Origin: an uncultured delta proteobacterium
Lineage (GTDB): Bacteria; Desulfobacterota; Binatia; Binatales; Binataceae
Length of the DNA: 64,000 bases
Direction: 5' to 3'
Assembly: GCA_963808235.1 (NCBI GenBank)
Contig: CAWEEQ010000004.1
Location: 3,744,001 to 3,808,000 of the forward strand
Position 1 is the stretch's first letter. Every line of letters begins with the position of its first letter. A model generated the notes under the pieces. That model had not been told where the DNA came from. It ran no database searches and worked only from the letters and a program-made list of their open reading frames with translations. A program made the position numbers and the translations under genes. Of this stretch, positions 4,615-57,104 are shown one piece after another.

Positions 4615-4691
4615 TAGGCCCGGTCCCACTCGCGCCGCCAAATATCTTCCGCTATTGCTTTGTGGTCAAATCTCGATTGAGGCGACTATCG

Positions 4692-5790
4692 ATGGCAATA
4701 GACATTATATACGGAGAACGAGTGACCGAGGGCGTCGAGGCGGACGCGAACACCGGTGGGCTGTGGCTGAACGGCGCCGACCTCGAGCGCGTCTCGGGCT
4801 GGACGCATAAGGCCGCAGGGATTCTGCAAGGGCGAGGTCTGCGTGCCGGTGCCGGCCGCGCGCCAAAGTGAGTTCGTTCACGGCGACGATTACAACCTGG
4901 CGGCGCTCGCGGAGATGCTCGGGCAGCCGATGGTCGCCGACGCGGAAAATCACGCGTACTGCTTTGGCGAGGCTGCGGACGAGCGCAAGCGAATCCTGAC
5001 CTCGCTCGACGCGCCGGATTTCAGCTTGCCCGATCTCGACGGCCGGACGCATTCGCTGTCGAAGTATCGCGGCAAAAAAGTTCTTCTCGTTTCATGGGCC
5101 TCGTGGTGAGGATGCCGCTTCGACCTGCCAGTCTGGCAGGCTCTTTACGAAGAACTCGGACCGAGTGGATTTGTGCCAATCGCGATCGCATTTGACAGCG
5201 GCGGCAATGCTGCCACCGAGCCGTGGATCAAGGCGGCCAAGCCCACTTATCCGTGCCTTATCGATCGACGCCACGTGGTCGCCGAGCTTTACGATATGGT
5301 CAATGTGCCGACCGCGGTCTGGATCGACGAGCGCGGCAAGATTGTCCGGCCGAGCGAGCCCGCGGGCGTGACCGACGCGTTCCGCAAGATGAATCGGACC
5401 AACTTTTCGATTCCTACCGACGCGATGAACGAGCTGCAGGCCAAGCGCAAAGCGTACCTCGATGCGCTTCGCGACTGGGTAGCGAAAGGCGCCAAGAGCA
5501 GGTTCGCGCTCGACGGGGCCGAGGTGCTCCGCCGGATGCATACTCCCGACGCCAAACAGGTGCGCGCCGCCGCAAACTTCCGGCTCGGCGAATATCTGTT
5601 CGAGCACGGCCACGCGGCTGCGGCGCAAAAGTATTTCGAAGAAGCGAAGCGGCTTCGTCCGGAGAGCTGGAATTACAAGCGCCAGGCATGGGCGCTCGAA
5701 GATCCGATGAAACCGGGCGGGCCCGAGTTCTGGGCCGCGGTCGATTCGCTCGGCGAAGGGAAATACTACCCCGGTGCCGAAGACATATAG
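4692..5790 (+). CDS. Thioredoxin-fold (ResA/TlpA-like, WAxxUGC motif) selenoprotein; Sec at TGA 5107-5109; apparent +1 frameshift at ~4812
   Basis: Three ORF pieces join. MAIDIIY...WTHK, one extra G at ~4812, PQGFCKGEVCVPVP...APDFSLPDLDG...KVLLVSWASW-TGA-GCRFDLPVWQ, continuing in frame into ORF 5173-5790. SECIS-like hairpin follows the TGA. Confidence 0.85.
5124..5140 (+). promoter_or_regulatory. Putative bacterial SECIS hairpin
   Basis: CCTGCCA-GTC-TGGCAGG stem-loop beginning 14 nt after the in-frame TGA. G-first apical loop resembles the E. coli fdhF SECIS minihelix. Confidence 0.75.
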
Positions 5791-6679
5791 CAATCGCGAG
5801 ATCCTGGTCGTGGGATATGGATCGTTGCTGAGCGGATACGGCCTGCTCGCGCAGCGGCGCGGCGGGGCGAGCCGGCTAATCGCGCGCGACGTCGAGCGGG
5901 TCTCGATTCGTAACGCGCGGCGCGGACTCGCCAAGCCGTCGAGTCACGGCAGTTACCTCGCGATGGATATCGAACCGGTCGATCGACGAGCGTCGATTAC
6001 CGCATCGACTGGACTGGGCGGCGTCGGAATCGGCGGCCTGCTTCTGACTTTCGATCGCGAGTGCGCGCCGCTGATTGCGCGGCGCGAGGAATACGAGGCC
6101 GGCGCGTTCGAGCGGCTGATTGGGCTGGCCGATCGCGCGGGCGTCCCGCTCGGCGAATACCTGATGGAGCTCGCAAGCGGAACGAATTTCGATCTGCTCG
6201 CGTATCGAATCGCACTCCGCACGATGCTCGGCTACACGTCGCCCGGCTACATTTTCCATCCGATCCAAATCGACGACGGGCGTATCGCGATAATCGCGAT
6301 AGGGTCAGGATTTGAAGGGAGCGGAGATCCGCGGATTGTGTCGCGGCGCCAGCAATTCGGGATGGATCGACTGCTCACGCTCGACGAGGCGCTGCGGCTC
6401 GAAATTCCCGATTTCGACCGCGCCGGACAAATCGGCTACTACGCCGAATGTCTGCTCGGCGGACTGCACGGAGTGGCGGTCGGCGATCTCGCGAATCGGT
6501 TCGACCCGGACGCTCCGTGGCTGCGCGAGCTCGACGATCACTTCGCACGAGTGGCGAGTGGCGAGCGGGCAAGATTTATCGAGGCCACCTCTCTGGATGA
6601 CGCGCGTTACGAGGCAAGGTTTTCCAGCCGTCATGAAAACCTTGCCGCGCTTCTGAAAACCGCGAGCGTGGAACCATGA
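5774..6679 (+). CDS. Hypothetical protein with gamma-glutamylcyclotransferase-like N-terminal motif
   Basis: 301-aa ORF starting ILVVGYGSLL (GGCT/ChaC-like YGSL), later RREEY. Overlaps both neighbours. Confidence 0.55.
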   Translation: MPKTYSNREILVVGYGSLLSGYGLLAQRRGGASRLIARDVERVSIRNARRGLAKPSSHGSYLAMDIEPVDRRASITASTGLGGVGIGGLLLTFDRECAPLIARREEYEAGAFERLIGLADRAGVPLGEYLMELASGTNFDLLAYRIALRTMLGYTSPGYIFHPIQIDDGRIAIIAIGSGFEGSGDPRIVSRRQQFGMDRLLTLDEALRLEIPDFDRAGQIGYYAECLLGGLHGVAVGDLANRFDPDAPWLRELDDHFARVASGERARFIEATSLDDARYEARFSSRHENLAALLKTASVEP

Positions 6680-7185
6680 CGACGCCTGTCGACTCGAAAT
6701 TTTCGATTCACGTGGCGAAGGAAAATCTGAAATTCTCCGCCGCGCATTTCATCGCCTATCCGGGATTCCGCGAGCCGCTGCATGGCCACAACTACCAGGT
6801 CGGTGTTTACGTCGAAGGCAAGCTCGCAAGCACCGGCTACGTGATCGATTTCGGGCTGATCAAAAAACTTACCAAAGAGATCGTCGATCGACTCGACGAG
6901 CGAACGATCATCCCGGCCAACAGCGATTGCCTGAAAATTGAAGGACCCAAGGACGGGAAGGTGCGAATCTTTTACGAGCGCGACGAGTTCGTGCTCCCCG
7001 CGGCCGACGTATGCCTGGTTCCGATCGTGCACAGCTCGGCGGAGGAACTCGCACGCTACATATGGAACGAGCTGGCGGCGGCGCTGATCGCACGCGGTGC
7101 ACTCAGGGAAGTGACGACGATGGAAATTTCAGTGGCCGAGGGTCCCGGCCAGTCGGCGCACTATCGCAGTCAGACCTCCTCCTAA
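6676..7185 (+). CDS. queD: 6-pyruvoyl-tetrahydropterin synthase / QueD family protein
   Basis: FSAAHF, LHGHNY, GYVIDFG and SSAEELA motifs; ATGA overlap with the upstream gene. Confidence 0.8.
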   Translation: MTTPVDSKFSIHVAKENLKFSAAHFIAYPGFREPLHGHNYQVGVYVEGKLASTGYVIDFGLIKKLTKEIVDRLDERTIIPANSDCLKIEGPKDGKVRIFYERDEFVLPAADVCLVPIVHSSAEELARYIWNELAAALIARGALREVTTMEISVAEGPGQSAHYRSQTSS

Positions 7186-7229
7186 GCTGAAGTTCATTCC
7201 GCGCGGGCGCAATTGCGATGGCGATCTCG
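7140..7229 (+). repeat. 90-bp direct repeat, left copy (includes the last 46 nt of the queD-like gene)
   Basis: GGGTCCCGGCC...GCGATCTCG is identical to 12650-12739; flanking bases differ. Confidence 0.95.
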
Positions 7230-7304
7230 TCGCCGCCCGAGAATCGCGGAGAAATTGACGCGGCGCCGCAGAAAATCCGGAAGATCGATCGACTCTCCGG
7301 AAAC

Positions 7305-7682
7305 TCAATCTCCTATTTTAATCGCTTCCGCGGTGCATGCGACTCTGGACCAACAGTCTCTAAGCAGCGCTCCCCCAGTGCCGCTCCCGCACGTGACGTT
7401 GGTGATCCCATTGGCGCTCATCGCGCCGGCTTTAGTCCGCAGTTGATCGGTCACGCCTTGCTCGGTTGGTTGATCGTCCCACAGAGCGAATTTGCATGCG
7501 CTGGCATCGATCGGCCCGAGCGTAGTGTATTTGAGACTGGCGAGATCGCCGGGTTGATACACTTTCACCTGTGCGGTCTGCTCAGGTACCACAGGAATGC
7601 CTTCCCGCAAATTGCAGCCCGCGACGACCACTACCAATAGTCCAGTACTCAATCCAGACAACATATTTTTGTAGCTAATCAT
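7305..7682 (-). CDS. RcsF-like lipoprotein (125 aa)
   Basis: GAGG RBS then MISYK...LLVVVVAG-C lipobox. Mature part VKVY...YTTLGPIDASAC...A..MSANGI...C...DCWSRVACTAEAI has the 4-Cys pattern and layout of E. coli RcsF. Confidence 0.7.
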   Translation of the reverse strand: MISYKNMLSGLSTGLLVVVVAGCNLREGIPVVPEQTAQVKVYQPGDLASLKYTTLGPIDASACKFALWDDQPTEQGVTDQLRTKAGAMSANGITNVTCGSGTGGALLRDCWSRVACTAEAIKIGD

Positions 7683-8147
7683 CGCTAACCTCGAATTTCC
7701 GTTTTTGAAACCGGATTCATTCGCATCAAGACCACGCGTTTGAAAACACAAAGTTGGAGCCCGGATTTGATTCCAAATACTTTGCAGGGCACCGCACCCG
7801 GCGCGTTCTGCCTCGCCTTGGTAAAAGAACACCGAAACTGGTGGCTTTCCTCTCTGAATTGTTTATTCCCCGCCGTGGGAATATGGCTCGGAGTGTGACA
7901 CTCGCGCAAGCGAAACAGTCCGTAAGGGCTACCGTTGAAAGGAGAAACTGAATCTAGACGCCTCTTCGCTTGCCGGCGGGCTGGCCGGATGCGTGTACGC
8001 GCCGCATAAACTTGACGCTCATTTTCGAGCCTTGCGACGCGAAAAAGCTAAATATATAAGGCGTTGCACGTATAGACCGTCAAGAGGTGTCCTAGTACAC
8101 TGCCACTGGCGTTGCATTACGCTCGGCTCTGAAGTCTTTACAGGGAC

Positions 8148-11100
8148 ATGCGCTGTCTATCGTGCGGATACGAAAATCCGCCGGACCGCGAGGGGTTCTG
8201 CGGAAAATGTGGCGCATCCTTGGCCGCCACACCGTTCTCCACGTCGACTATCCGCCCGCAAGCAGCCCGGCCGCCATCACTTTCTTTCGGCTCAGGCCGC
8301 TATCGCGCGATTCGTCTGCTTGGCGAAGGCAGCAACAAGAGAGTCTACCTGGCCCGCGACACCAGTCTCGATCGCGACGTGGCCATCGCGGTCCTCAGGA
8401 CCGAAGGACTCGACGAGGCGGGATGCGCACGTGTCCGCCGCGAGGCGCGGGCCATGGCCAGGCTCGGTGACCATCCAAATGTCGTCACGGTCTACGATGT
8501 CGGCGAAGAAAATGGCCAGCCATTCATCGTCAGCCAGTACATGGCTGGAGGCACGGTCGAAGATTTACTGGCCCGGTCGGCGAATCACCGCTTGCCGGTT
8601 GATCAGGTGCTGAAAATCGCGCTCGAAGCCTGCGAGGCTTTGGGACACTCGCATTCGTGCGGCATCGTTCATCGCGATTTCAAACCGGGAAACATCTTTC
8701 TGACCCAGGACGGCAAGTGCAAACTGGGTGACTTCGGCCTCGCCCTAACGATTGGCCAATCGCGCCTGACGGCAGTCAACATAATCGTCGGCACGGTTAG
8801 TTACATGCCACCCGAAGGAATTCTTGGCAAGCCGCTCGACGCGCGCGGCGATCTCTACTCACTTGGGGCCACCCTATACGACATGATAACCGGCCAGCCG
8901 CCCTTCGTGGGCGATGACCTGCGGACGATTCTGGCCCAACATGTCAACAGGGAGCCAGTGCCCCCGTCAACGCTCGCTCCCGGAACGCCCCGCGCGCTAG
9001 ACGAAATCGTCCTGACACTTCTGAAAAAGGACCCCGCAGAACGGCCCCCGAACGCGACCGCAGTGCGAAACAGGCTGCGGATGCTGGCGGCCTCGCCGAA
9101 GACTTCGATGGAGTTGCTGGCGTCCAGCGTGATGCTGGAACGCCCAAATCTGGGCCTCCACCTAGCCCTGGGCGGAACGTACAGCATCCTGTTTTCGGAC
9201 ATAGAGAATTCGACCGCGATGAACGAGGCGCTCGGCGACCAGAAATTTCACGAAGTGCTTCAAATGCACAATTCGATCATCCGCGGGCAGGTCGAAAGTC
9301 ACGGCGGCTTTGAAGTCAAGTCAATGGGCGACGGATTCATGATCACATTCTCGAGCACGCGGCAAGCGCTGGAATGCGCGATCGGCATCCAGCGACAGCT
9401 CGCGGCCTACAGTGATCAGCATCCGAGACAGCCTATCCGCGTCCGAATCGGACTGCACGTTGGCGAGGCGATCAAGGAGGGCCGCGACTTCTTCGGCAGA
9501 AGCGTGAATATGGCCGCGCGGATCGGGGCCAAGGCTCAAGGCGGTACGATCCTGGTGTCTTCGACGTTCAAGGAAGTGACCGAGGGCAGCGGCGGCTTCC
9601 GCTTCGATCACGGCCGCGCGTTTGAACTGCAGGGCTTTTCGGGAATCCATCGCCTTTACCAAGTGGCCTGGCGGGATGAAGAACGCACCTGTCCCAATTG
9701 CTCGAAGCGAATTTCTGCATCATCTCACTCCTGTCCGAATTGTTCGATCTTGTTGCCCGCGATGCCATTTTCGACGCCTCCGGCACCGGACGAGGAGGTG
9801 CCGGCGGGCATCTGTAAGAAATGCGGCCGTGGGATTCCCGTCGATGCGCGCTTTTGTCCGTACTGCAGTGCTGACTTGACGCCACGTCCCGCGATAGTGC
9901 TCGAAGCCGACCAAGCCGCGGATCTTCAGCCAGATCCTGTCGCGCCGGCGTTGGTGCTCGGCGAGGGACAAGCCGCTGGTTTTCAGCATGGTCCTATCGC
10001 GTCTGGCCGAGCGGGGCGTGCATCAACACTTTTGGCGATTGGAGCGATCAGCATTTTCATTACCGCAATCGGCTTCACCGCAACCTACTACTACAAGGAC
10101 ACTTATCTGCCACGGCAGCGGGCGGCGGCCGAAGCTCGTGCCAAGACCGAGAAGGAGGCACAGGCGCAAGCCGCCGCGCAGGAAGCTGAAAGGGCAAAGA
10201 CGGCAGCAGCGACCGAGCAGACGCGACGCAAGGCTGCGGCGCAGCAACAGGCGGCCGCAGAGGAGCACTATGCGAAGTTGAACGTTCAGCTCGAGAAGGC
10301 TGTCGCCGCGGTCCGGCACGCGAAGGCGGGAAGCGAGGCGGAGAAACAGTTTCGCGAGAATGCGATCTCAATTGCGCTCCAGATGAATCCGCCGCCGGCG
10401 ATTCCAGAAGCGGCGCGCCAGCTGCTCAGCGAGGGTGATGGCACGATGAGTCGCGCAACGACCACCTTCGACTATAACGCGGCAGCCGAAAAATATCGCC
10501 GCGCGCTCTGGCTCGCACCATGGCTCGCCTCAGGCTATCAACGATTGGCTCAGGCCGAAGAGAAAGCCGGCAATCTGGAAGCGGCGGTCGGAGCGCTGAA
10601 CTACTGTAGCGCGGGGGTGCGCGACGCTTCGGCCCGCGCAGAGGTACTCAAGAAGGTTGTGGCGATCCAAGCCCAGATCGGAACATTGAAGAAAGAAGCT
10701 GAACTCAAACAAGAGGCGGAGGCGCAGGCCAGGCTCGAAGCATCGAAGAAGGAAGCCGAGCTCAAGCGACAGGCCGACGCACAGGCCAAGCTCGAAGCAT
10801 CGAACAAAGAAGCGGACCTCAAGAGACAGGCTGAAGCGCAGGCCAGGCTCGAAGCTTTGAAGAAGAATTCTGGGGAAGAACAATCCGACGAAAAGGGGAA
10901 TGACAAATCAGCCGAGAGCTCCAACCAAGCTTCTACGGAGCCGAAGTCTGGCGGTCCCCAAGTGCAAGCCGAGCCGAAACCAAAGCCGGAACCCTCTGAC
11001 CAAACCGCTCCTTGCGCCGCCGCTCTTGCGAGCAGGGACTACGCGGCGGCGCTGTCGTCATGTTCGACGGCCGCAGCCCAAGGTGATTCGCACGCGGAGA

Positions 11101-11489
11101 GCAACCTTGGCGTCATGTACCAAAACGGGCTCGGGGTGCCCAAGGACAACGCTGAGGCGCTCAACTGGTACCTCAAGGCGGCGGCCCAGGGGAACGCGGC
11201 TGCTCAGAATTCCTTGGGCGACGTGTACCTATACGGAGTCGGAGCACGGCAGAATTATATAGAAGCGCTGGACTGGTATCAGAAAGCCGCCAGGCAGGGC
11301 GTGGCGAATGCAATGTTCTCTCTGGGCTACATGTACGAGCAGGGTTTGGGTGTCGGGGTGGACAACACGCGGGCCGTTGAATGGTATCAAAAGGCCGCGA
11401 AGCTGGGCTCCGCTGAGGCGAAGAAACGGCTTGGTTCCGGAACCATTCCAAGCAACCCCGCAGTCTACACCAGCGATCCTTCGCCATGA
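8148..11489 (+). CDS. Membrane-anchored Ser/Thr kinase - class III nucleotide cyclase fusion with zinc ribbons, TPR-like helices and Sel1 repeats
   Basis: N-terminal CLSC..FCGKC; LGEGSNKRVY, HRDFKPGN, DFG, YMPPE; cyclase LFSDIENST, VKSMGDG, RIGLHVG, DFFGRSVNMAARI; CPNC..CPNC and CKKC..FCPYC; TM LLAIGAISIFITAIGFTATYYY; Sel1 repeats (NLGVMYQNGLGV..WY.KAA.QG). Confidence 0.9.
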   Translation: MRCLSCGYENPPDREGFCGKCGASLAATPFSTSTIRPQAARPPSLSFGSGRYRAIRLLGEGSNKRVYLARDTSLDRDVAIAVLRTEGLDEAGCARVRREARAMARLGDHPNVVTVYDVGEENGQPFIVSQYMAGGTVEDLLARSANHRLPVDQVLKIALEACEALGHSHSCGIVHRDFKPGNIFLTQDGKCKLGDFGLALTIGQSRLTAVNIIVGTVSYMPPEGILGKPLDARGDLYSLGATLYDMITGQPPFVGDDLRTILAQHVNREPVPPSTLAPGTPRALDEIVLTLLKKDPAERPPNATAVRNRLRMLAASPKTSMELLASSVMLERPNLGLHLALGGTYSILFSDIENSTAMNEALGDQKFHEVLQMHNSIIRGQVESHGGFEVKSMGDGFMITFSSTRQALECAIGIQRQLAAYSDQHPRQPIRVRIGLHVGEAIKEGRDFFGRSVNMAARIGAKAQGGTILVSSTFKEVTEGSGGFRFDHGRAFELQGFSGIHRLYQVAWRDEERTCPNCSKRISASSHSCPNCSILLPAMPFSTPPAPDEEVPAGICKKCGRGIPVDARFCPYCSADLTPRPAIVLEADQAADLQPDPVAPALVLGEGQAAGFQHGPIASGRAGRASTLLAIGAISIFITAIGFTATYYYKDTYLPRQRAAAEARAKTEKEAQAQAAAQEAERAKTAAATEQTRRKAAAQQQAAAEEHYAKLNVQLEKAVAAVRHAKAGSEAEKQFRENAISIALQMNPPPAIPEAARQLLSEGDGTMSRATTTFDYNAAAEKYRRALWLAPWLASGYQRLAQAEEKAGNLEAAVGALNYCSAGVRDASARAEVLKKVVAIQAQIGTLKKEAELKQEAEAQARLEASKKEAELKRQADAQAKLEASNKEADLKRQAEAQARLEALKKNSGEEQSDEKGNDKSAESSNQASTEPKSGGPQVQAEPKPKPEPSDQTAPCAAALASRDYAAALSSCSTAAAQGDSHAESNLGVMYQNGLGVPKDNAEALNWYLKAAAQGNAAAQNSLGDVYLYGVGARQNYIEALDWYQKAARQGVANAMFSLGYMYEQGLGVGVDNTRAVEWYQKAAKLGSAEAKKRLGSGTIPSNPAVYTSDPSP
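10689..10859 (+). repeat. Three 57-bp coding tandem repeats (19-aa unit KKEAELKRQAEAQARLEAS)
   Basis: Units start at 10689, 10746 and 10803. Confidence 0.85.
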
Positions 11490-11652
11490 CGTGAAGAAAT
11501 CTCTCGCGATTTTGTTCAGCCGAGCTTCAGAAGATCAAACGGTTTACTTGCAGCTAGCCCGCCGTCTGCCACTGTTGACACGTCTAAAGCGCGGTGACAG
11601 GATGTTTGCCGTTTCCGCCGTTTCGTCAGCAATTCAAGTCCGGGGGGAGTTT

Positions 11653-12102
11653 ATGAAGCGGTATCTCGTATTCCTTGTGGCTGTGCTTGGGTTGCAGAGC
11701 CATGGATGTGCTTCGATATTTTGGGGTACTCACCAGGATCTCTCCATTGACAGCACGCCAAGTGGGACGCTCGCCAGTCTCTCCGATGGACAGAGCTGTA
11801 CAACGCCATGCAAAGTTCGAATTTCGCGAGGAACCACATATGCGATCAAATTTTCGAAGGACAACTGTGTTGGCCAGACTGAAATGGTCTCCAGCACTGT
11901 ATCAGGGGGTGCAATGGCAGTTTCCTTGATAGGAATCCCGGCGGGTACAATCATTGATTACATGGACGGCGCTGTTTACAGCGCTGACCCAAATCCAGTG
12001 AGTTCCTCGCTTGAATGCAAGCTCCCGTCAGTAGCTAATGCTCCTGCACCTGAAGCTCCGGCGATACTTCCTACAAAAGCTTCGGCCTCTACCTCGCCCT
12101 AG
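11653..12102 (+). CDS. PEGA-like domain lipoprotein 1
   Basis: GGGAG RBS; MKRYLVFLVAVLGLQSHG-C; SIDSTPSG..CTTPC; hydrophobic segment then IIDYMDGAVY..PNPV. Confidence 0.75.
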   Translation: MKRYLVFLVAVLGLQSHGCASIFWGTHQDLSIDSTPSGTLASLSDGQSCTTPCKVRISRGTTYAIKFSKDNCVGQTEMVSSTVSGGAMAVSLIGIPAGTIIDYMDGAVYSADPNPVSSSLECKLPSVANAPAPEAPAILPTKASASTSP

Positions 12103-12152
12103 ACTTCGCGATTGATCCCAAGACCGAAGAGAATTCGGCCCAAGGAGTATCC

Positions 12153-12608
12153 ATGAAGAGACTTCTTGTATGCCTTGTCGCCGTGCTGGGACTGCTGAAT
12201 CATGGATGCGCTTCAGCTATTAGAGGAACTAGCGAAGACCTTTCCATCGAGAGCACACCGAATGCCGCGGTTGCAACTCTTTCTGACGGACAAACTTGTA
12301 CCACACCCTGCACGTTGCGAATTTCAAGAGGAAAAGCTTACGACGTCAAATTTTCAAAAAGCGGCTGCATCGACCAGACTGAAGTCGTTCAACCACATGC
12401 CTCGGGCAGTGGAGTAGCGGAAGCCCTTTTCCCGTTGTTGACCTATTCTCTGGTAGTCGATTCGATGAACGGAGCCATTTACGACGCCAAACCAAATCCC
12501 GTGACTTCGAACCTTCAATGTATGCCCTCATCTGAGCCCACCTTTTTGGCCCCGGTGACTTCATCGGCGTCCGCTCCCAAAGCCGCTGCGTCTGATTTGC
12601 CAAAGTGA
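12153..12608 (+). CDS. PEGA-like domain lipoprotein 2 (paralogue of the preceding gene)
   Basis: AAGGAG RBS; MKRLLVCLVAVLGLLNHG-C; SIESTPNA..LSDGQTCTTPC..ISRG..Y..KFSK; VVDSMNGAIY..PNPV. Confidence 0.75.
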   Translation: MKRLLVCLVAVLGLLNHGCASAIRGTSEDLSIESTPNAAVATLSDGQTCTTPCTLRISRGKAYDVKFSKSGCIDQTEVVQPHASGSGVAEALFPLLTYSLVVDSMNGAIYDAKPNPVTSNLQCMPSSEPTFLAPVTSSASAPKAAASDLPK

Positions 12609-12649
12609 TCTTCTTCATCCCCGCGGTCAACGAGTCGACCCAACTCTTC

Positions 12650-12739
12650 GGGTCCCGGCCAGTCGGCGCACTATCGCAGTCAGACCTCCTCCTAAGCTGA
12701 AGTTCATTCCGCGCGGGCGCAATTGCGATGGCGATCTCG
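12650..12739 (+). repeat. 90-bp direct repeat, right copy
   Basis: Identical to 7140-7229. Confidence 0.95.
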
Positions 12740-12902
12740 CGATTGCCGATTCGAGTGCCCCGCGTGACTAAAAGTCGATTTGCGTTCACCTTTCCTGCTC
12801 ACCAACGGTCCATAGTCTGTCAACCGCAAGCGTATCGTGCGACGATCTTCCTGCAGCGCGGCGGCGGCCTTTAATCGCCGGTTGCGGGGGAAGATCGAGG
12901 GG

Positions 12903-13940
12903 GTGTCTGTCCAGCCGAAATTCATGGAGCCCGAAGCTCCTTTTGCGGTCGAGCGGGTCCTCGTTGGAGAGCATCCCGCGATCGTCAAGCTGCGCGCTCT
13001 GATCGAGCGCGTCGCCCCAACCGAGGCGACCGTGCTGATCATCGGTGAGAGCGGGACCGGCAAAGAAGTGGTCGCGCAGGCGATTCACGCACTCTCGCCG
13101 CGGAACCTGATGCCGTTTGTGCCGGTGAACTGCGCCGCGATTCCTCACGACCTGCTTGAATCCGAAATGTTTGGACATGAGCGGGGCGCATTCACCGGCG
13201 CCGCTGGATCGCGCCATGGGCTTCTGACTACCGCCGATAAAGGCACGATCTTTCTCGACGAAATCGGCGAGATGCCCAATGGCTTGCAGGCCAAGCTGCT
13301 GCGCGTGCTGGAAGACGGCGCGGTGCGGCCAGTCGGCTCCGATCGCGCGAGCCGGGTAAACGTGCGGGTGATTGCCGCGAGCAATGTCGATCTCGCCAAA
13401 GCGGTTGACAAGGGTGCGTTTCGCGCCGACCTTTTCTACCGGCTGCAAGTCGTGCCGATCGTGATTCCTCCGATGCGCGAGCGGCGATCGGATACTCCGC
13501 TGCTCACCGAATTTTTCCTCGATCGGGTTCGCGATCGCACTCCCGGCCGGAGCATCGCAATCAGCCGCGAGGCGATGGTGGCGCTGTGGTCTTACGATTG
13601 GCCGGGCAACGTGCGCGAGCTCGAGCATATGGTCGAGCGGCTGGCGATCCTGTGCGAAGATTCGATCATCGACATTCCGCTACTGCCCGAGAGCCTCGCG
13701 CTTGGCGCGCGTCCGGCGGCGGCCCCGATTCCAGTCCGGCTTGGCGAGACTGGGGTGAACCTCAACGACTTGGTACGGGAATTGGAGGGTAGACTGATAA
13801 ACGATGCACTAAAGCAGAGCGGAGGAAACAAACAGGCTGCGGCGCGACTGCTCGGACTGAAGCGGACGACATTTTCCGCGAAGCTGCGGCGCTGCGGCGT
13901 GATAGCTACGGCATCTTCGGACGAGAACGAGGAAGACTAG
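12903..13940 (+). CDS. Sigma-54-dependent transcriptional activator (AAA+ and Fis HTH, no N-terminal sensory domain); start uncertain (12903 GTG or 12924 ATG)
   Basis: [46 protein letters not shown], and [20 protein letters not shown]. Confidence 0.9.
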
Positions 13941-13956
13941 CCGGGCAAGGATTGGT

Positions 13957-14406
13957 ATGGACGAAGCAATCAGAGCGCCCCAGATAATGATCGTTGACGA
14001 CGATCAGGACACAGTTGCAATCCTGGCGCGGCATCTGCAACGCGAAGGCTTTGTCCCAATAGAAGCCCACTCCGGCGCCCAGTGTCTCAAACTGGTACTG
14101 GAGAACGAAGTCGACGTGATCCTGCTCGATCTCATGATGCCGGAGATGGACGGGTTCCAGGTGGTCAAAGAACTCAGGAAAAATCCCGTCACCGCGGAGA
14201 TCCCGATAATCATGATCACCGCGCGCGACGACCTGGACGCGCGGGCTGAGGGGATGCGCCTCGGGGTCAGCGACTTCCTTGCCAAGCCGGTGTTCCGCCG
14301 TCAGCTCGCGAGCCGGGTCCGCGCGCAGCTGGAGGTGGTGGAGACGGCGCGCAACGCGACGGCCGCGATGGATCGACTCGACGCGGCCACCAAGCGGTCG
14401 CACTAA
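13957..14406 (+). CDS. Single-domain response regulator (receiver)
   Basis: IMIVDDD, ILLDLMMPEMDG, ITAR, FLAKP. Confidence 0.9.
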   Translation: MDEAIRAPQIMIVDDDQDTVAILARHLQREGFVPIEAHSGAQCLKLVLENEVDVILLDLMMPEMDGFQVVKELRKNPVTAEIPIIMITARDDLDARAEGMRLGVSDFLAKPVFRRQLASRVRAQLEVVETARNATAAMDRLDAATKRSH

Positions 14407-14571
14407 ACGCTGACGCGAATCGATTTCAACGTCGACCGATGCAGTCCGTGCGCTGCACGTTATTGCATTGCGATCTCCCGAGCCCTTCGATTACAAGTTA
14501 AGCGTTCGTATTGTCGGCGGTTCGTTTTGAATCGATCGTCCTGAATCGACCGCTCAAGGAGAAAATTCGCG

Positions 14572-14940
14572 ATGAACGGCGACTCCCGCACCCAGCAATC
14601 CCACGTAATCGCCGCGCTCTCATACCTGCTCGGCTTTATCACCGGCCTGATTTTCCTTTACATCGAGCCGTACAGCCAGGACGACTACGTCCGCTTCCAC
14701 GCGCGCCAGTCGATCGGGTTTTCGGTCGCATGGTTTGCGATAAGTGTGATCCTCGGCGTGTTTATCGCGGTGCTGCCACAATTTCTGAGCGTGATCCTGG
14801 GCTTTCTGCTCGACATCATCGACATTGCGCTCGCGTGCTACTGGATCTTCCTGATGTACAAGGCGTACAGCGGCGAGCGCTATCGCATTCCCGAGCTTGC
14901 GGACATCGTCGATAGCATCGCGGGCACTCCCGCCGCTTAA
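14572..14940 (+). CDS. DUF4870-like small membrane protein
   Basis: AAGGAG RBS; AALSYLLG..VRFHARQS..MYKAYSGERYRIP; three TM segments. Confidence 0.75.
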   Translation: MNGDSRTQQSHVIAALSYLLGFITGLIFLYIEPYSQDDYVRFHARQSIGFSVAWFAISVILGVFIAVLPQFLSVILGFLLDIIDIALACYWIFLMYKAYSGERYRIPELADIVDSIAGTPAA

Positions 14941-14975
14941 GCTCGCTCCAGTCGCGCGGCGCAAGCTCTGAAGTT

Positions 14976-17312
14976 CTATTTCTCGGTGGACGCGATGGCT
15001 GCAGATGCCTCCGCGGCTACGGCCTCGGCGGCCGGCGTGTTGTCGGCCGGCTGAGCGTTGGCCGGCTGATCCTCAGCAGGATGGTCTTCAGCGGGATGAT
15101 CTTCGGCCGCCGCGTCGTTTAGATGGCCGTCGGCGATTGTGACGGGCGCGCGCGTCTGCGCTTGTATATTTGCGATTCCCTGGGTCGCGAGTTTCAGGCT
15201 CGGCTCGAGGTTGATAGCGTCGAGCACGCGGCGGGAAACTTCATCGGTGATCTGCGGCGCGGTGCGGGACTCGGCCGGGTAGCGGATAATTATCTCGAGG
15301 CCGGACTGGCTAAGATGCATGCGGCTCTGCGGCTTGGGCGTTTCGAGGATGATGTTGAGATCGTGTTCGAGATGCCGAAATTCGGCGAGCACGCGGTCGC
15401 GATAACGCGCGAAGACTTCATCGACGGCGTCGAGCAGGCGTTTTTCCGCGAGCCGGTAATCGCAATCCGGCGCAAGCGTGAGCCGGATCTCGTTCCACAC
15501 GAAGCTGGTCCCGGGCGCCTGCTTGAAAAAGTTTCCCGACGGCTGGAACACGACCGCATTTGAGAACACCACTACGCGGCCGGTGGGCTGGCGATGGGTC
15601 CCGCTGCCGCTGAGTTCCATCATCGAGAGCTTCACCAATCCAATATCGATCACGTCGCCGGTGACGCCGCCGATTTGCACCCGATCGCCGGCCTTGATTC
15701 CGAATCGTCCGATCAGAAAGAAGTAGCCCGCGATCGACAGGATCACGTTCTGCAGCGCGACCGCGATTCCGGCGGCGGCGAATCCAACCACGGTCGCGGC
15801 CGAGCCGAGCTCGTCGGAGAAGTTGAGCAGCACCACGGCGAGAATGAGCAGGCCGATCACCAGCCGGCGCGCCGCCAGCACCTGCCCGCGGCGGCGGATA
15901 TCCTGCACGTAGCGATGCGTGAGCCATCGCCACACCTGCCCGCCGAGAAAGATCACGCCCAAGGCGGCGGCAAGTCCGAACAGCCGGAAAATCAGGCGCC
16001 TGAACTCCGTGGTCCAGCGATCGTTGATCGTCGCGCGCCAGCGCTCGAGGTTGTTGGTATAGATCCCCAGCAGCACCATCTGCTTGGACAGCGGCAGAGC
16101 GCTCGCGCTCGCGATTTTGTGCTCGGCGAGTAAATTCTCGAAGGCTTGCTTGCGATCCTGGAGCGTCGCCACATTGCCGGCCCCCCCGGTCTGGGCGAGT
16201 TGGTAGCCGCCGGCGTCAAGCGCGCCGATTCGTTTGAGAATCGGATCGCGAACCTGTTTGATTCGCGCGGCCAGCGCCCTGGTCTGATCGGCGCTCCGCT
16301 CAAGCGAATCCATCCTGCCCTGGAGCGCGATTAGATCCGTGGTGAGGCTCAGAATGCCTGACGGTTCGACGGCTGGGTGCGCCGGTACAACGGGCTTGGC
16401 GTTACGCTCTGCGTCGGAGATCGAATGATCGAGTTGATCGATTTCTCCGGCCAGAGATTGTTCGGGCGCCGCGCTGCCGGCTTGGAATTGCACGAATGCG
16501 TTCAGCGCGTCGATCCGCGCGTTGACCAGATCGAGCTCGTTTTGTGCGCTCGCGATCTCGGCGGAGAGCGCCGCACGCTGCTTAGCGGGCGACTTCTTCA
16601 GCTGCGCTCGCAGATCCCTCAGATGCGCCTGCAACGCGGTCGCGCTCGCTTGCATCTGAACGAACTTTTGCTTGATGTCGCTGGGGGTGTCGGATGCCGT
16701 CGGCGCCGCGACGACCTCCGCGGGTGCGGCGCTGCCCGTCTTTTGCGTGGGCTTGACCGTGGTCTGCCCGGTGGTTGCGGCGATAAAGGTCGCCTGCGCG
16801 CGCGCGTACTCGAAAGCAAGACTCAGGATCTGGTTCGCGACCTGGCGGTCATCGGCGAAGAAAAGCGTTTCTTCAGGCTCGACGACCAGTTGGCCCTCGG
16901 TGCCGAGATGGCGGTACCAGCCGATCACATCACTCAGATACGCGATGACGGTTTGCGGATTCGTCGGCGAGAACGTGGCTTGTTTCTGCGCCGCGGAACT
17001 CGGGCCTGCGGACGGCGGCGCGGCAGCAGACGTGGGATTGGTGGCTTGAGAACTCGCGAGCGGGGAAGGAGCGGCTGCGATCGCGCCGGTACTTGCGCTC
17101 GAACTTAAGCTCGAACTTGCGCCGATTCTCGATGCCGGCATTGCAGTGGACAGTGCCGAAGGCGCGAGACTCGCAGCCAGCGAGCGCCGCGTCGATCCGA
17201 AAATGGCGGCGGTCGCACCGAGCGAGGCGACCGCCACGATGACGAGCGGTATCGTGCTGTTACGACGGCGGATTCCGATAGATGAAAGTGGGGTCTTGCG
17301 ACGCGAACGCAT
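14976..17312 (-). CDS. Large MscS-family mechanosensitive channel with periplasmic coiled-coil region
   Basis: GFAAAGIAVALQNVILSIAG, IKAGDRVQIGGVTGDVIDIG, GRVVVFSN; long N-terminal helical region. Confidence 0.85.
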   Translation of the reverse strand: MRSRRKTPLSSIGIRRRNSTIPLVIVAVASLGATAAIFGSTRRSLAASLAPSALSTAMPASRIGASSSLSSSASTGAIAAAPSPLASSQATNPTSAAAPPSAGPSSAAQKQATFSPTNPQTVIAYLSDVIGWYRHLGTEGQLVVEPEETLFFADDRQVANQILSLAFEYARAQATFIAATTGQTTVKPTQKTGSAAPAEVVAAPTASDTPSDIKQKFVQMQASATALQAHLRDLRAQLKKSPAKQRAALSAEIASAQNELDLVNARIDALNAFVQFQAGSAAPEQSLAGEIDQLDHSISDAERNAKPVVPAHPAVEPSGILSLTTDLIALQGRMDSLERSADQTRALAARIKQVRDPILKRIGALDAGGYQLAQTGGAGNVATLQDRKQAFENLLAEHKIASASALPLSKQMVLLGIYTNNLERWRATINDRWTTEFRRLIFRLFGLAAALGVIFLGGQVWRWLTHRYVQDIRRRGQVLAARRLVIGLLILAVVLLNFSDELGSAATVVGFAAAGIAVALQNVILSIAGYFFLIGRFGIKAGDRVQIGGVTGDVIDIGLVKLSMMELSGSGTHRQPTGRVVVFSNAVVFQPSGNFFKQAPGTSFVWNEIRLTLAPDCDYRLAEKRLLDAVDEVFARYRDRVLAEFRHLEHDLNIILETPKPQSRMHLSQSGLEIIIRYPAESRTAPQITDEVSRRVLDAINLEPSLKLATQGIANIQAQTRAPVTIADGHLNDAAAEDHPAEDHPAEDQPANAQPADNTPAAEAVAAEASAAIASTEK

Positions 17313-21001: not shown

Positions 21002-21074
21002 ACTTGATTGTGGTGAAACCCGCGGTGGGTTTCACAACTTCCTTCGGCAGGGGTGACCCCTGCACCCAATGTTC
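21000..21074. repeat. Structured dispersed repeat, copy 1 (similar to 34836-34908)
   Basis: GAAC..TGTGGTGAAACCC-GCGGT-GGGTTTCAC..GCAGGGG-TGA-CCCCTGC..CAATGTTC. Confidence 0.8.
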
Positions 21075-21154
21075 AGAAAGTTGCTGACTGTATCGCCGGT
21101 CTCGGTCCTTTGCATCCCCGATGCTGCCTTTGTAGCGTAAACTCTTAACGGCCC

Positions 21155-34835: not shown

Positions 34836-34908
34836 GAACTTAATTGTAGTGAAATCCGCCGTGGGTTTTCACACTTCCTTGGGCAGGGGTGACCCTGCAC
34901 CAATGTTC
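34836..34908. repeat. Structured dispersed repeat, copy 2
   Basis: GAACTTAATTGTAGTGAAATCCGCCGTGGGTTTTCACACTTCCTTGGGCAGGGGTGACCCTGCACCAATGTTC aligns with 21000-21074. Confidence 0.8.
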
Positions 34909-54561: not shown

Positions 54562-56715
54562 TCACTCGAAATCCAGCTTCACTCCTGCCAGGAATGTGAC
54601 CGGCGGCGCCTTGAAGCCGAACGCCTCCGAATAATTGCGGTCAATCGCATTTGTTACGCGCGCGAAAACTTCCTCGTTGTGCACGAAGTTGAGCGGCGCG
54701 CCGAGCGCGTACGACGCAACCACATCAACGCGATGATACGCGTCGTGGTTGGCGATGGTGCCTTCAGGCGTGATGTCGTCACGATCGCCCACGAATATGT
54801 AGTTCACGCTGGCGGTGATTCGATCGCGCGGAAGAAAACTACCGCTGCGCACGTATTGCAACAGCACCGACGCCGAATGCTTTGGCACCCGCAGCGGACG
54901 CGGCGGCGTCAAAAACGCTTTTTTGAAATTGAGCGGCGCGTCTTTGTGCGTCTCGTCGAGCACGGTCACATTGCCGCCAAACGTCAGCCCCTTGACGATC
55001 GTAACTTGCGGCACGATCTCGATCCCCTGCACGTCCACGCGCGCGGCGTTACCCGCCTCCGAGCCGAATGCGCAACTGGTTGGATTCGTTTTGCATGGCA
55101 CGGTGACGATCAAATCGTGCACGCGGCGCGAAAAGTAGGTGGCGGTAAATGACGCCATCTCGCCGAAGGTGGTCGTAAAGCCGCCGTCGTACTCGCTCGA
55201 TGTTTCGGGCTGCAGATTCGGATTGCCGAAGCCGGGAAAGTCGAGTTCGTTGAACGAGGGCGCGCGAAAGCCTTCGCTATAGCTGCCGCGCAGCGTCGTC
55301 GAGATTTTGTCGATCGGAATCGCGACCGACCACGACGGGCTTACCTCTTTGCCGAACTGGCTGTTGCCATCCACGCGAAACCCGCCGGTCGCGAGCAGAT
55401 GCCCGTCGAATAAGCTCGCCTCCTGCTCGAGGTATCCGGCGTACTCCTGGCGGCGCGCGCTGAAATTCGTGGTCGAAAGCCCGAAACCTGGAGTCACGCT
55501 CGCGCCGAAGTCGCGAACCCATCGATCCTTGAAATCAAAACCCGCCAGCGTGCGAAAGCCCTTCGCCCAGGACGACTCACTTCGCGACCAGGTGTACACC
55601 GCGTTCAGCTCGCCGCCGCGAACCTCGTCGGGAATGCGATCCACCTCGCTGCCCGCAAAGCCGGCGAACGGAACCTCGTTGATGCGAATATCGTCGCGCA
55701 CGAAGAATGCGTTCGCGGTCGCGACGAACTGATCGCTGAAATGATGTTCGATCGCGCCATTGAAGAGCATGAATTCGTGACGCTGATGCGCGGTCGGGTT
55801 GTCGACAATCGGGGGAAAGTTCGATATCGAAAAATGCGACAGGCTTACGTTGGAGCGGAAGTAGCGCGCAAACCCGCGGATGATCGTGTCGTCGGTCAGG
55901 TGATAGTCGAGTCGGACATTTCCGGCCAGATTGTCCGAGCTGTCATTGTTGTGCCGGTAGCCCTCAGTCGAGAAGTACGACAGCGCACCCGAGTAATCGA
56001 GCTTTCCTTCCGCACCGCCGAACGTTGCGACCTGCCGGTTGCTCGCGTGATTGCCGCCCTCGGAAAGTAGACTCGCTTTCGGTGCGCCCTCGCCCTCCGG
56101 CGAAATGAGCTGGACCACGCCGCCGATCGCCTGCGAACCATACAGCGATCCGCCGGCGCCGCGCAGAACCTCGACGCGGTCAAGATTGTCGGTGGTCAGG
56201 TTCGCAAAATCGAAGCTGCCGGTCGCACCCGCGTTAACCTCGACGCCATCGACCAGCACCAGCGTCTGCGATGCAGTCGCGCCGCGAATCGATACATCGG
56301 TCTCGGCACCGGGTGAGCCGGTTTGCGTAACCTGCACGCCGGGCACTTCACGCAGAACATCTTCGACCTTGTCGATTTTCTGCGCTTCGATTTGCGGGCC
56401 TTCGACCACCGTGATCGTGGTGCCGATCTCCGAGATCGGCTGCTCGATTTTGGTCGCCGTCACGACGACCGGATTGAGCTTTTGCGCCTGCTCTTTCGGT
56501 GTCGCCGGATTGCCCGATGTGCTCTTCGTGTTTGCAGACGGCGTCTGCGCGGACGGTTTTTGCGCTGCGGAGTTCTTCCCGCTCGCCGAAGGAGTAGCGG
56601 CGGCTTGCGGGGGCGTCGATGCCGACTGATCCGCGCGCGCGACCGGACCAAGCATCAGTGTGATAACGATCGTCGCCAAGATCGTCGGGATGACTCGATG
56701 AAATATTTGCCGCAT
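54562..56715 (-). CDS. btuB: TonB-dependent receptor, probable corrinoid (B12) transporter
   Basis: GGAGGGAG RBS; VVVTATK TonB-box region, plug (VEVLRG..SLYGSQAIGGV), GFRAP, NLQPE; downstream of a cobalamin riboswitch. Confidence 0.85.
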   Translation of the reverse strand: MRQIFHRVIPTILATIVITLMLGPVARADQSASTPPQAAATPSASGKNSAAQKPSAQTPSANTKSTSGNPATPKEQAQKLNPVVVTATKIEQPISEIGTTITVVEGPQIEAQKIDKVEDVLREVPGVQVTQTGSPGAETDVSIRGATASQTLVLVDGVEVNAGATGSFDFANLTTDNLDRVEVLRGAGGSLYGSQAIGGVVQLISPEGEGAPKASLLSEGGNHASNRQVATFGGAEGKLDYSGALSYFSTEGYRHNNDSSDNLAGNVRLDYHLTDDTIIRGFARYFRSNVSLSHFSISNFPPIVDNPTAHQRHEFMLFNGAIEHHFSDQFVATANAFFVRDDIRINEVPFAGFAGSEVDRIPDEVRGGELNAVYTWSRSESSWAKGFRTLAGFDFKDRWVRDFGASVTPGFGLSTTNFSARRQEYAGYLEQEASLFDGHLLATGGFRVDGNSQFGKEVSPSWSVAIPIDKISTTLRGSYSEGFRAPSFNELDFPGFGNPNLQPETSSEYDGGFTTTFGEMASFTATYFSRRVHDLIVTVPCKTNPTSCAFGSEAGNAARVDVQGIEIVPQVTIVKGLTFGGNVTVLDETHKDAPLNFKKAFLTPPRPLRVPKHSASVLLQYVRSGSFLPRDRITASVNYIFVGDRDDITPEGTIANHDAYHRVDVVASYALGAPLNFVHNEEVFARVTNAIDRNYSEAFGFKAPPVTFLAGVKLDFE

Positions 56716-56773
56716 GAACTCCCTCCGAGTTCGTTCGGCTGCCGGCGCGCGAGCGGGAGCGATCAGGCGTTTC

Positions 56774-56814
56774 AAGAAAAAGCCCCATCCCTCGCGTATC
56801 GAAGGATCGGGCTT
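56774..56814 (-). terminator. Attenuator hairpin in the riboswitch expression platform
   Basis: Minus strand AAGCCCGATCCTTCG..CGAGGGATGGGGCTT followed by TTTCTT, between the aptamer and the btuB start. Confidence 0.65.
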
Positions 56815-56862
56815 CAGGAAATCCGTGCCTGAGGCCACCCTCCCCGCGGAAGGCAGACAGTT

Positions 56863-57005
56863 AGTGACCCGGCCGGTCTCCTGGCTTGGGGTTCGTCCTT
56901 GGGCCCGCCTTCCCGCCTAAGCGGTGGCATCGTGGGCCTTCGTCCCCCCACACAGTTGCGGGGCAGCGCCGGATTTCAACCGGCTTCCCGAGCACCGGGT
57001 GCGGC
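56863..57005 (-). ncRNA. Cobalamin riboswitch
   Basis: Minus strand GGGAAGCCGGTTGAAATCCGGCGCTGCCCCGCAACTGTG ... GGGAAGG ... AAGCCAGGAGACCGGCC (B12 box). Confidence 0.92.
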
Positions 57006-57104
57006 CAGAACGTTACGCGGGGCACTGTGCGTAGTCAACCTCCGCTGGCGCATCGGAAAATTTTCGTCACGTCCGATGCGATCGTGTACGCTGGGATGAT
57101 TCGC

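Follow-up and report, generated by a model that had tools for sequence, protein, structure and literature searches.

Integrative elements at the 3' ends of protein-coding genes are not unusual, and fda, rlmH and icd are known targets. The integrative and conjugative elements (ICEs) ICESt1 and ICESt3 are located at fda, the staphylococcal cassette chromosome (SCC) and ccr-less pseudo-SCC at rlmH/orfX, and phage 21 and e14 at icd. Campbell-type integration is known from the integration of suicide plasmids and from Hfr (high frequency of recombination) formation via shared copies of an insertion sequence (IS). In addition, identical direct repeats are a substrate for homologous recombination. Cis-mobilizable elements (CIMEs) are described in PMC5704250 as decayed ICEs or integrative and mobilizable elements (IMEs) which retain attL and attR. 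For IS1549 and IS1634, PMC2266710 gives target duplications of variable length between 8 and 514 bp and describes their mechanism as not understood. Here, we compare with these systems an island of 5,420 bp, which was identified in a 64-kb stretch of contig CAWEEQ010000004.1 (called the window in the following) and which lies between two identical 90-bp sequences at the end of a queD-like gene. The host chromosome is that of Candidatus Binatus (Binataceae), an uncultured soil lineage. The island and its direct surroundings consist of the following features:

6676..7185, plus strand: PTPS/QueD-like gene, 169 aa (Pfam PF01242 PTPS, E 1.9e-23; stop codon TAA at 7183-7185)
7140..7229, plus strand: repeat copy 1 (R1), the last 46 nt of the queD-like coding sequence including the stop codon, followed by 44 nt of spacer
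7230..12649, no strand: inserted cassette of 5,420 bp with four genes (GC content 57.8%, compared to 61.2% for the window)
12650..12739, plus strand: repeat copy 2 (R2), an orphan queD 3' end with spacer, which runs into the native upstream region of the activator gene
12837..13940, plus strand: gene for a sigma-54-dependent activator (AAA+, Fis-type HTH; Pfam Sigma54_activat 2.1e-68, HTH_8 1.6e-11)

The sequences 7140-7229 and 12650-12739 are identical in 90 of 90 positions and have the same orientation, with their starts 5,510 nt apart. This perfect repeat had been described in a first reading of the sequence (the original prediction), together with its content, i.e., 46 nt of the queD-like open reading frame (ORF) 6676-7185 plus downstream sequence, and with two small palindromes, TGAAGTTCA at 7188-7196 and CGCAATTGCG at 7208-7217. 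All of these observations could be reproduced. Because R1 provides its final 46 nt, the queD-like gene remains intact. A 48-nt part of the repeat was found at only two places in the window when up to three mismatches were allowed, and two or more matches occurred in none of 100 shuffles. The left edge of R1 falls within the codons of AEGPGQ(S/A)A, a motif common to the whole QueD-like family. The 3' 44 nt are spacer sequence. Its conservation is poor in L001, the nearest relative, and it is missing from relatives that are more distant. The two palindromes are not conserved in L001. The edges of the repeat are sharp. When the inner 200 nt of either island end were aligned locally with the opposite flank, the scores were no better than those of shuffles (p = 0.18-0.40, 300 shuffles each), i.e., no homology extends past the repeat. 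A weak queD-like 22-mer 18 nt before R2 was discarded as a chance match, being no better than shuffles (p = 0.18).

Several other explanations of the repeat were tried and rejected. It is not a structured RNA, since the fold of the 90-mer was equalled or surpassed by 197 of 200 shuffles (z = +1.76). Terminator-like sites are found four times in 6900-13000, compared to a shuffle mean of 7.2, and none of them lies in R1 or R2. A scan of the window did not assign the repeat to an Rfam family, and no tRNA genes were detected there. Nor is it an interspersed element: the 80 related loci introduced below contain one long match only, a single copy in L001 (91% over 47 nt), and the other matches are 19-27 nt long and located at the orthologous queD 3' end. 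In 1.44 Mb, comprising these 80 loci and the window, the only exact direct repeats of at least 90 nt outside tandem paralogue genes are the 90-mer of the window and a 126-mer in locus L069.

For identification of the site before the insertion, the window was compared with 80 related loci that contain queD homologues of 72-91% identity, taken from one genome per GTDB species. Each locus comprises the queD homologue and up to 10 kb on either side, and the window's own genome is not included. A search by tblastn detected the activator downstream of queD in 75 of the 80 loci. The gap between the two matches is 89-272 nt in 74 of them and 4,920 nt in the last one, L032. The original prediction had proposed an insertion at the 3' end of the queD-like gene and had suggested looking in related genomes for an empty site or for different cargo. 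Both are present: the activator directly follows queD in 74 of the 75 loci, which supports the proposed insertion, and one locus, L032, carries 4.9 kb of other genes there. The five loci in which no activator was seen are uninformative or rearranged: the sequence of L035 stops 1,469 nt past queD, while L042, L054, L056 and L062 continue for at least 9,240 nt after queD without it, with unrelated housekeeping genes at this place in L056. With regard to an Xer-dependent element (IMEX) or a pdif-type module, the empty site in the relatives is an ordinary spacer between genes, which argues against a chromosomal dif site.

The nearest relative, L001, is colinear with the left flank of the window and aligns with it up to L001 position 1185 (86.2% identity), and the window from 12650 onwards aligns with L001 1107-3419 (85.7%). 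Both repeat copies thus map to a single L001 interval (1107-1185), from which it follows that the cassette was inserted in the lineage of the window and that the repeat duplicates the earlier site. At the level of sequence comparison, the 5,420 bp between the repeats are confirmed as a lineage-specific insertion. The island DNA has no match within the 80 loci; the three small cargo proteins are without tblastn match there (E <= 1e-8), and the cargo kinase gives only two partial domain matches. R1 and R2 show no difference in 90 nt, which corresponds to a divergence of at most 3.3% (95% bound), whereas the flanks of window and L001 differ by about 14%. Because of this difference, the insertion, or the last homogenisation of R1 and R2, is estimated to postdate by far the separation of the window's lineage from the nearest species sampled. 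The recent event suggested originally is therefore plausible.

In addition, we searched for functions that could have moved the island. Pfam analysis of the four cargo genes revealed no recombinase, transposase, relaxase or phage families, and these families, as well as remnants of a recombinase, were equally absent from the nine alternative-frame ORFs of the non-coding parts of the island (E <= 1). No ICE or IME remnant genes were present in its coding or non-coding parts at the same threshold, and no phage, replication or transfer families in the island as a whole. Recombinase and transposase families are absent from all 62 window ORFs scanned (11 + 51); the 51 ORFs outside the island region were scanned at E <= 1e-5 and are also without relaxase or phage families, and 19 of them have no Pfam match of any kind. 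The island ends show no terminal inverted repeats over 60, 100 or 150 nt (p = 0.06, 0.21 and 0.42, 500 shuffles each). Neither the 50,697 phage records nor the 72,556 plasmid records searched by blastn contained a match to the 5,420 bp. Among the 80 loci, no ICE or IME was seen to use the queD site. The literature search returned no report of queD as an integration site of genomic islands; queD was encountered solely among the genes of an expression table. The statement that no recombinase lies inside the island thus stands, while the attL/attR signature read from the duplicated gene end is not established, in view of the missing integrase, remnant and cognate element at the site in 80 relatives. 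That the target is protein-coding is correct, but this is in itself not unusual for integrative elements, as the examples given at the beginning indicate.

The cassette carries four genes, one of them with internal tandem repeats:

7305..7682, minus strand: small lipoprotein, RcsF/DUF4156-like, 125 aa (Pfam RcsF E 1.5e-5, 25.4 bits against a cut-off of 29)
8148..11489, plus strand: kinase-cyclase-Sel1 membrane protein, 1,113 aa (Pfam domains)
10668..10865, plus strand: 57-nt tandem repeats in the kinase gene, coding for coiled-coil-like EAELK...QAEAQARLEASKK units
11653..12102, plus strand: PEGA-like lipoprotein 1, 149 aa (the longer ORF matches Pfam PEGA with E 0.0099)
12153..12608, plus strand: PEGA-like lipoprotein 2, 151 aa (match to Pfam PEGA with E 6.3e-4 and 20.0 bits, below the cut-off of 20.8)

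For the RcsF/DUF4156-like lipoprotein, Met51 of the ORF was chosen by us as the start, and the signal sequence ends with LLVVVVAGC. Its atlas leads (0.94-0.95) are mixed among unnamed, DUF4156 and RcsF clusters. The 1,113-aa protein consists of a Zn-ribbon, a Ser/Thr kinase (Pkinase, E 1.2e-46), a class III nucleotidyl cyclase (Guanylate_cyc, 6e-20), a double Zn-ribbon (DZR, 1.1e-10), a predicted membrane segment, which was judged by eye from the hydrophobicity of the translation, an Ala/Glu-rich region and Sel1 repeats (4.8e-33). Three to four of the 57-nt tandem units are present; they are 77-84% identical and encode an Ala/Glu/Lys-rich segment between the membrane segment and Sel1. This kinase-cyclase family is large, and its named members are nearly all from Binataceae. 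The protein collection contains no entry identical to the kinase. The best relative is P0121 with 81% identity, and all others reach at most 69%, among them many Binataceae paralogues at 50-69%. PADLOC was used to look for a defence system and matched only the kinase domain (residues ~46-320), to which PD-T4-6 and further models of kinases responded; no match was obtained for the three remaining cargo proteins or for the alternative-frame ORF 7218-7640. An assignment to a complete known defence system was therefore rejected.

The two PEGA-like lipoproteins are paralogues (56% identical) with few relatives (9 matches in the protein collection), and lipoprotein 2 has all of its 30 atlas matches in PEGA clusters (0.97). 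Orthologues of lipoprotein 2 are P0242 and P0243 (88-89%), and P0244 is an orthologue of lipoprotein 1 (79%). P0243 and P0244 are encoded together on one contig of 19,168 bp, P0242 on a contig of 1,316 bp and the kinase relative P0121 on one of 6,640 bp. A further protein of 229 aa from another assembly, P0247, joins a stretch like the periplasmic Ala-rich part of the kinase to a stretch like the PEGA lipoproteins. It suggests that kinase and PEGA genes may adjoin in relatives too, fused or frameshifted in that case. Taken together, the orthologous PEGA proteins and P0247 point to the presence of the module elsewhere in related organisms. Judged from its domains, the cargo looks like an envelope-signalling module. 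The GC content at third codon positions (GC3) is 0.595 for the RcsF-like lipoprotein (z -1.6) and 0.493 for each PEGA-like lipoprotein (z -2.9 for lipoprotein 1), compared to 0.72 +/- 0.08 for the 51 other ORFs of the scan. The kinase gene, which makes up 62% of the island, has a GC3 of 0.687 (z -0.4) and is typical of the window. Sigma-54 promoters that might link the island to the adjacent activator were also considered and rejected: 48 matches in the window face 58 expected ones, and the two matches upstream of cargo genes lack the GG.

Two of the related loci contain insertions that are comparable to the island. In L032, the insertion between queD and activator (4637-9528) encodes a SmaI-type endonuclease, an N4/N6 methylase, a transposase of the IS1595 family and a DUF3800 protein. 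Directly after the queD stop codon, it contains a 28-nt fragment of a transfer-messenger RNA (tmRNA) 3' end (~4640-4667, 93% identical to the tmRNA of L072). Such a fragment is the usual mark of an element formerly in ssrA. The ~127-nt upstream region of the activator is present twice (6569-6692 and 9383-9509, 82% identity) and flanks the part with the transposase and the DUF3800 gene. A native copy was not recognised, as neither of the two matches the other loci by blastn. The boundaries of this insertion differ from those of the island in the window. A 19-nt palindromic unit, AATGTTTCACGTGAAACAT, also occurs twice in L032, within 9195-9242.

In L069, a perfect direct repeat of 126 bp (7485-7610 and 8877-9002) comprises 1 nt, the last 40 codons of a helicase gene, the stop codon and 2 nt. 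The insert between the copies has 1,266 bp and a GC content of 49.5% in a locus of 66%. It encodes an HTH protein (HTH_66) and a DUF433/PIN_10 toxin-antitoxin pair, and no recombinase was found in it. In the closest relatives of L069, the helicase gene is followed by the gene for a 301-aa protein within ~60-75 nt, i.e., the site is empty. Just before the second repeat copy, at 8810-8880, lies an inverted 71-nt helicase fragment which is 86% identical to the resident copy, differs from it by two 1-nt indels and is bounded by GAAG/CTTC microhomology. This insert has no terminal inverted repeats, and its ends are not similar to those of the window island. The two inserts are alike in the perfect repeat of a conserved gene 3' end, the low-GC cargo, the lack of a recombinase and the empty site in relatives. 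They differ in the DUF433/PIN_10 and HTH cargo and in the helicase fragment, to which the window island has nothing comparable.

Altogether, duplications of ~90-130 bp around insertions were found at three sites of one neighbourhood in three genomes (window, L069 and L032). Elsewhere in this neighbourhood, differences in size are, on a non-systematic view, mostly without a flanking repeat. Two-copy repeats in L029, L072, L060, L067, L068, L012 and L007 were looked at briefly and are not counted as cases. A 66-68-nt repeat of 85% identity in L075 was dropped as a further case, since it is part of an array of tandem paralogues shared with L073. In L073, this array (12885-17236) follows the DUF4870 gene and consists of units of ~1 kb which are 80-90% identical. 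L075 has a shorter version of it (12762-14244), and the 66-68-nt repeat holds a terminator-like hairpin after DUF4870.

The reading we favour, tentatively and at slightly less than even chances, is that of a passive cassette with a duplicated target, which would have entered by host recombination or repair and could leave by homologous loop-out. The cassette is regarded as a passenger because it has no mobility function of its own. The pre-insertion site, i.e., 46 nt of gene end and 44 nt of spacer, would have been duplicated by host recombination or repair at entry. This could happen by a single Campbell-type crossover between the chromosome and a circular DNA sharing the 90 bp, or by insertion at a staggered break or through a template switch, copying the target. 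An integrase encoded by the element would not take part in either route. The insertion would be neutral for both neighbours, since R1 keeps queD and R2 keeps the upstream region of the activator whole. Homologous recombination between R1 and R2 would then release a circle of 5,510 bp and restore the empty site exactly. Such a precise loss, giving empty site and circle, is to be expected from 90 identical bases in direct order, and we prefer loop-out by homologous recombination, the alternative named in the original prediction, over attL/attR. The mechanism of entry and exit, like the function of the cargo, is what we infer from these data.

Local duplication would explain the perfect identity, the arbitrary right edge of the repeat and why the sites vary. 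Identical spacers follow automatically when the local target is the source of both copies, whereas the att model requires a donor of the same lineage. The lineage-specific spacer in the repeat therefore fits local target duplication at least as well as att. The inverted fragment of L069 with its GAAG/CTTC microhomology and the atypical GC3 of the three lipoprotein genes (0.49-0.60) were also counted for the passive cassette. In a Campbell-type integration, the shared segment is likewise found as a perfect direct repeat on both sides, no site-specific recombinase is needed, and the event is reversible. In contrast to such replicons, the island is without a replicon or transfer function.

Several points weigh against the passive cassette. 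We know of no well-established bacterial process that gives target duplications of ~100 bp without a transposase. As precedent for local duplication there are only the unexplained long duplications reported for IS1549 and IS1634, which are autonomous IS (PMC2266710). The origin of a circle with exactly these 90 bp and the 5.4 kb of cargo is unexplained. That the repeat begins in the best conserved coding motif of the queD-like gene and extends over its end is what a target-restoring integrative element would give, and the repeat of L069 likewise covers the 3' end of a gene. The analogues L032 and L069 belong to other genomes and are only partly analysed. The integrated structure is that of the assembled sequence, and an excision product is a prediction. 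The native-like composition of the kinase gene indicates that the cargo is not uniformly foreign. Finally, the search for mobility genes spans 64 kb of the genome, and an integrase might be encoded elsewhere.

The strongest alternative, which we consider rather unlikely, is a decayed or non-autonomous CIME-like element. A tyrosine or serine recombinase would have inserted it at an attB site over the queD 3' end, the two 90-bp copies would form the identity block of attL and attR, and the integrase would have been lost or would act in trans. By the definition in PMC5704250, integration and transfer genes are lost in a CIME while attL and attR are kept. The island resembles a CIME in having flanking repeats without such genes, and it would be movable only in trans or by host recombination. 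It also resembles the elements that target gene 3' ends: the direct repeats hold the 3' end of the target gene, the gene is left whole, and an orphan 3' fragment lies at the far end. A conserved attB would make sense at the invariant AEGPGQ(S/A)A codons, in which the left repeat edge falls. The empty site in relatives and the GC3 values, which are atypical in three of four cargo genes, are in agreement with this explanation as well. The architecture of L069 is the same and concerns another conserved gene; a diverged target-gene fragment lies beside the second repeat copy there, and the toxin-antitoxin and HTH cargo is typical of element remnants.

Against a CIME-like origin stands the absence of an integrase, excisionase, relaxase or remnant of these in the island and the 64-kb window. 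There is no ICE or IME remnant in the island and no integrase-bearing cognate element at the queD position in the 80 relatives, and the L032 insertion has other boundaries. The elements of gene 3' ends have a dedicated recombinase, their own or one that they are known to borrow, and repeats that stop close to the gene end, whereas the repeat of the island runs 44 nt into the spacer. About half of this long (90 bp) identity block is non-conserved, lineage-specific spacer, and an att function is putative. The cargo includes no typical gene of mobile elements, and its kinase comes from a large native family of Binataceae paralogues. A site-specific reading would, moreover, need three specificities for three duplicated sites within a few kb; a generic process accounts for the duplications in three genomes more easily than three site-specific systems.

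An assembly artefact is improbable. In this case the second repeat copy would not be real, or a free circle of 5,510 bp would have been threaded into a chromosome with an empty site. Perfect identity of the copies would be expected then, and the other perfect case, L069, likewise comes from a metagenome assembly. In addition, a protein identical to PEGA-like lipoprotein 2 (P0241) is recorded on one contig of 5,480 bp only. This length equals 5,420 + 2x30, as for a segment of a k = 31 assembly graph with branches at both ends, and is compatible with a mixed or circular state. However, the contig fits a real repeat, a mixture of presence and absence, or a free circle alike. If it were the whole island, an entry identical to the kinase would be expected, and the collection has none. 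It may be a separate island contig of the k = 31 type, or the queD entry may stem from a relative with an empty site. The collection entries considered here are P0241 and P0001. The queD entry is an identical protein on a contig of 3,849,788 bp, which, as a putative source of the window, suggests long-read data and argues against an artefact. Reads that cross the repeat also give its flanks unambiguously, because 90 bp are exceeded by every long read and by the largest k that common short-read assemblers use. The ORFs are intact across the window, and the diverged (82%) flanking duplication in L032, a metagenome-assembled genome (MAG) from short reads, shows that such structures occur naturally.

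It is still less probable, and in our view very unlikely, that the island is a non-autonomous unit which was moved in trans by a transposase producing long target site duplications, similar to that of IS1634 or IS1549. The direct repeats of these IS, tens to hundreds of bp of target sequence, are like those of the island, and 90 and 126 bp lie within the 8-514 bp reported in PMC2266710. Duplications of varying length at different sites would also fit a transposase better than an integrase. However, IS1634 and IS1549 are 1.5-2 kb long with their own transposase and ends, whereas terminal inverted repeats are absent from the inserts of window and L069, whose ends are not similar to each other. 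No transposase was found in the window, and the only one seen, in L032, belongs to another family (IS1595).

That the cassette was ancestral at the site and lost in the other lineages is a formal and almost negligible possibility, in which recurrent exact loss would be promoted by the repeats. Of the 75 informative loci, 74 are empty across 72-91% queD identity, the cargo is not found within +/-10 kb in any of the 80 loci apart from the two partial kinase domain matches, and the repeats are identical while the flanks are ~14% diverged from the nearest relative. The probabilities given to all these mechanisms leave a remainder open.

The surroundings of the island are well conserved. A comparison by tblastn with the window proteins revealed the common order UvrD-type helicase, thioredoxin-fold/TPR protein (weak Pfam matches), 301-aa protein without family, queD, sigma-54 activator, receiver protein and DUF4870 protein. 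The start of the queD-like gene overlaps the stop codon of the preceding 301-aa ORF, and the activator gene has a possible alternative start (ATG at 12924). The QueD-like protein has hundreds of close relatives, and those with a name belong to Candidatus Binataceae or Binatus. The receiver gene lies within this conserved synteny directly behind the activator:

13957..14406, plus strand: response-regulator receiver protein (Pfam Response_reg 1.8e-29)

At 14976-17312 on the minus strand lies an ORF of 778 aa with several hydrophobic stretches and no Pfam match at E <= 1e-5, which is found in many relatives and not in L001 at the corresponding position. The remaining genes of the window have housekeeping functions (ATP synthase, cobalamin salvage, EPSP synthase and others). 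A cobalamin riboswitch (56854-57024, minus strand; Rfam RF00174, 101 bits) is the sole Rfam match in the window. It immediately precedes the gene for a TonB-dependent receptor (54562-56838, minus strand) and lies beside cobU/cobS/cobT-like genes. Intergenic repeats of an interspersed family were noticed as well. They are ~80-95 nt long, carry two hairpins (GTGAAACCC-ACGG-TGGGTTTCAC and GCAGGGGTGACCCCTGC) and occur in both orientations. Members are found in the window (21013-21079 and 34840-34901) and in L016 (7403-7496, 8804-8889, 15129-15210 and 16431-16508). In total, 89 blastn matches were obtained in 31 of 81 sequences, often flanking the thioredoxin-fold gene. This family looks like REP (repetitive extragenic palindromic) sequences or MITEs (miniature inverted-repeat transposable elements) and is unrelated to the 90-bp repeat.

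Taken by itself, the island is a fairly ordinary small non-autonomous accessory islet, which is bounded by a long exact target duplication and represents a variant of a known structure. As a decayed element between att sites, or as an artefact, it would be ordinary as well. A preprint states that most genomic islands are without known means of mobility (bioRxiv 10.64898/2026.01.13.699239). For such islands, the present one is a clean and small case, with a pre-insertion site known from 74 relatives, no mobility gene and an exact flanking duplication. Its interest grows if the ~100-bp duplications in the three genomes share a cause that is independent of recombinases. It is conceivable, though quite doubtful, that Binataceae take up foreign DNA by a route not described so far and without an integrase, duplicating a target of ~90-130 bp, and thereby repeatedly acquire small cassettes at the ends of conserved genes without harm. 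Candidate cases are the queD site (90 bp), the helicase of L069 (126 bp) and the activator upstream region of L032 (127 bp, 82%). Such duplications might be due to template switching during replication, or to an enzyme that acts in trans and cuts with a long stagger. If this is true, the repeats would make the cassettes reversible and exchangeable via ordinary homologous recombination. Should the duplication stem from host recombination or repair, no dedicated machinery would be needed for accessory cassettes to enter and leave the neighbourhoods of core genes, which would bear on the interpretation of MAG pangenomes and of 'integration hot spots'.

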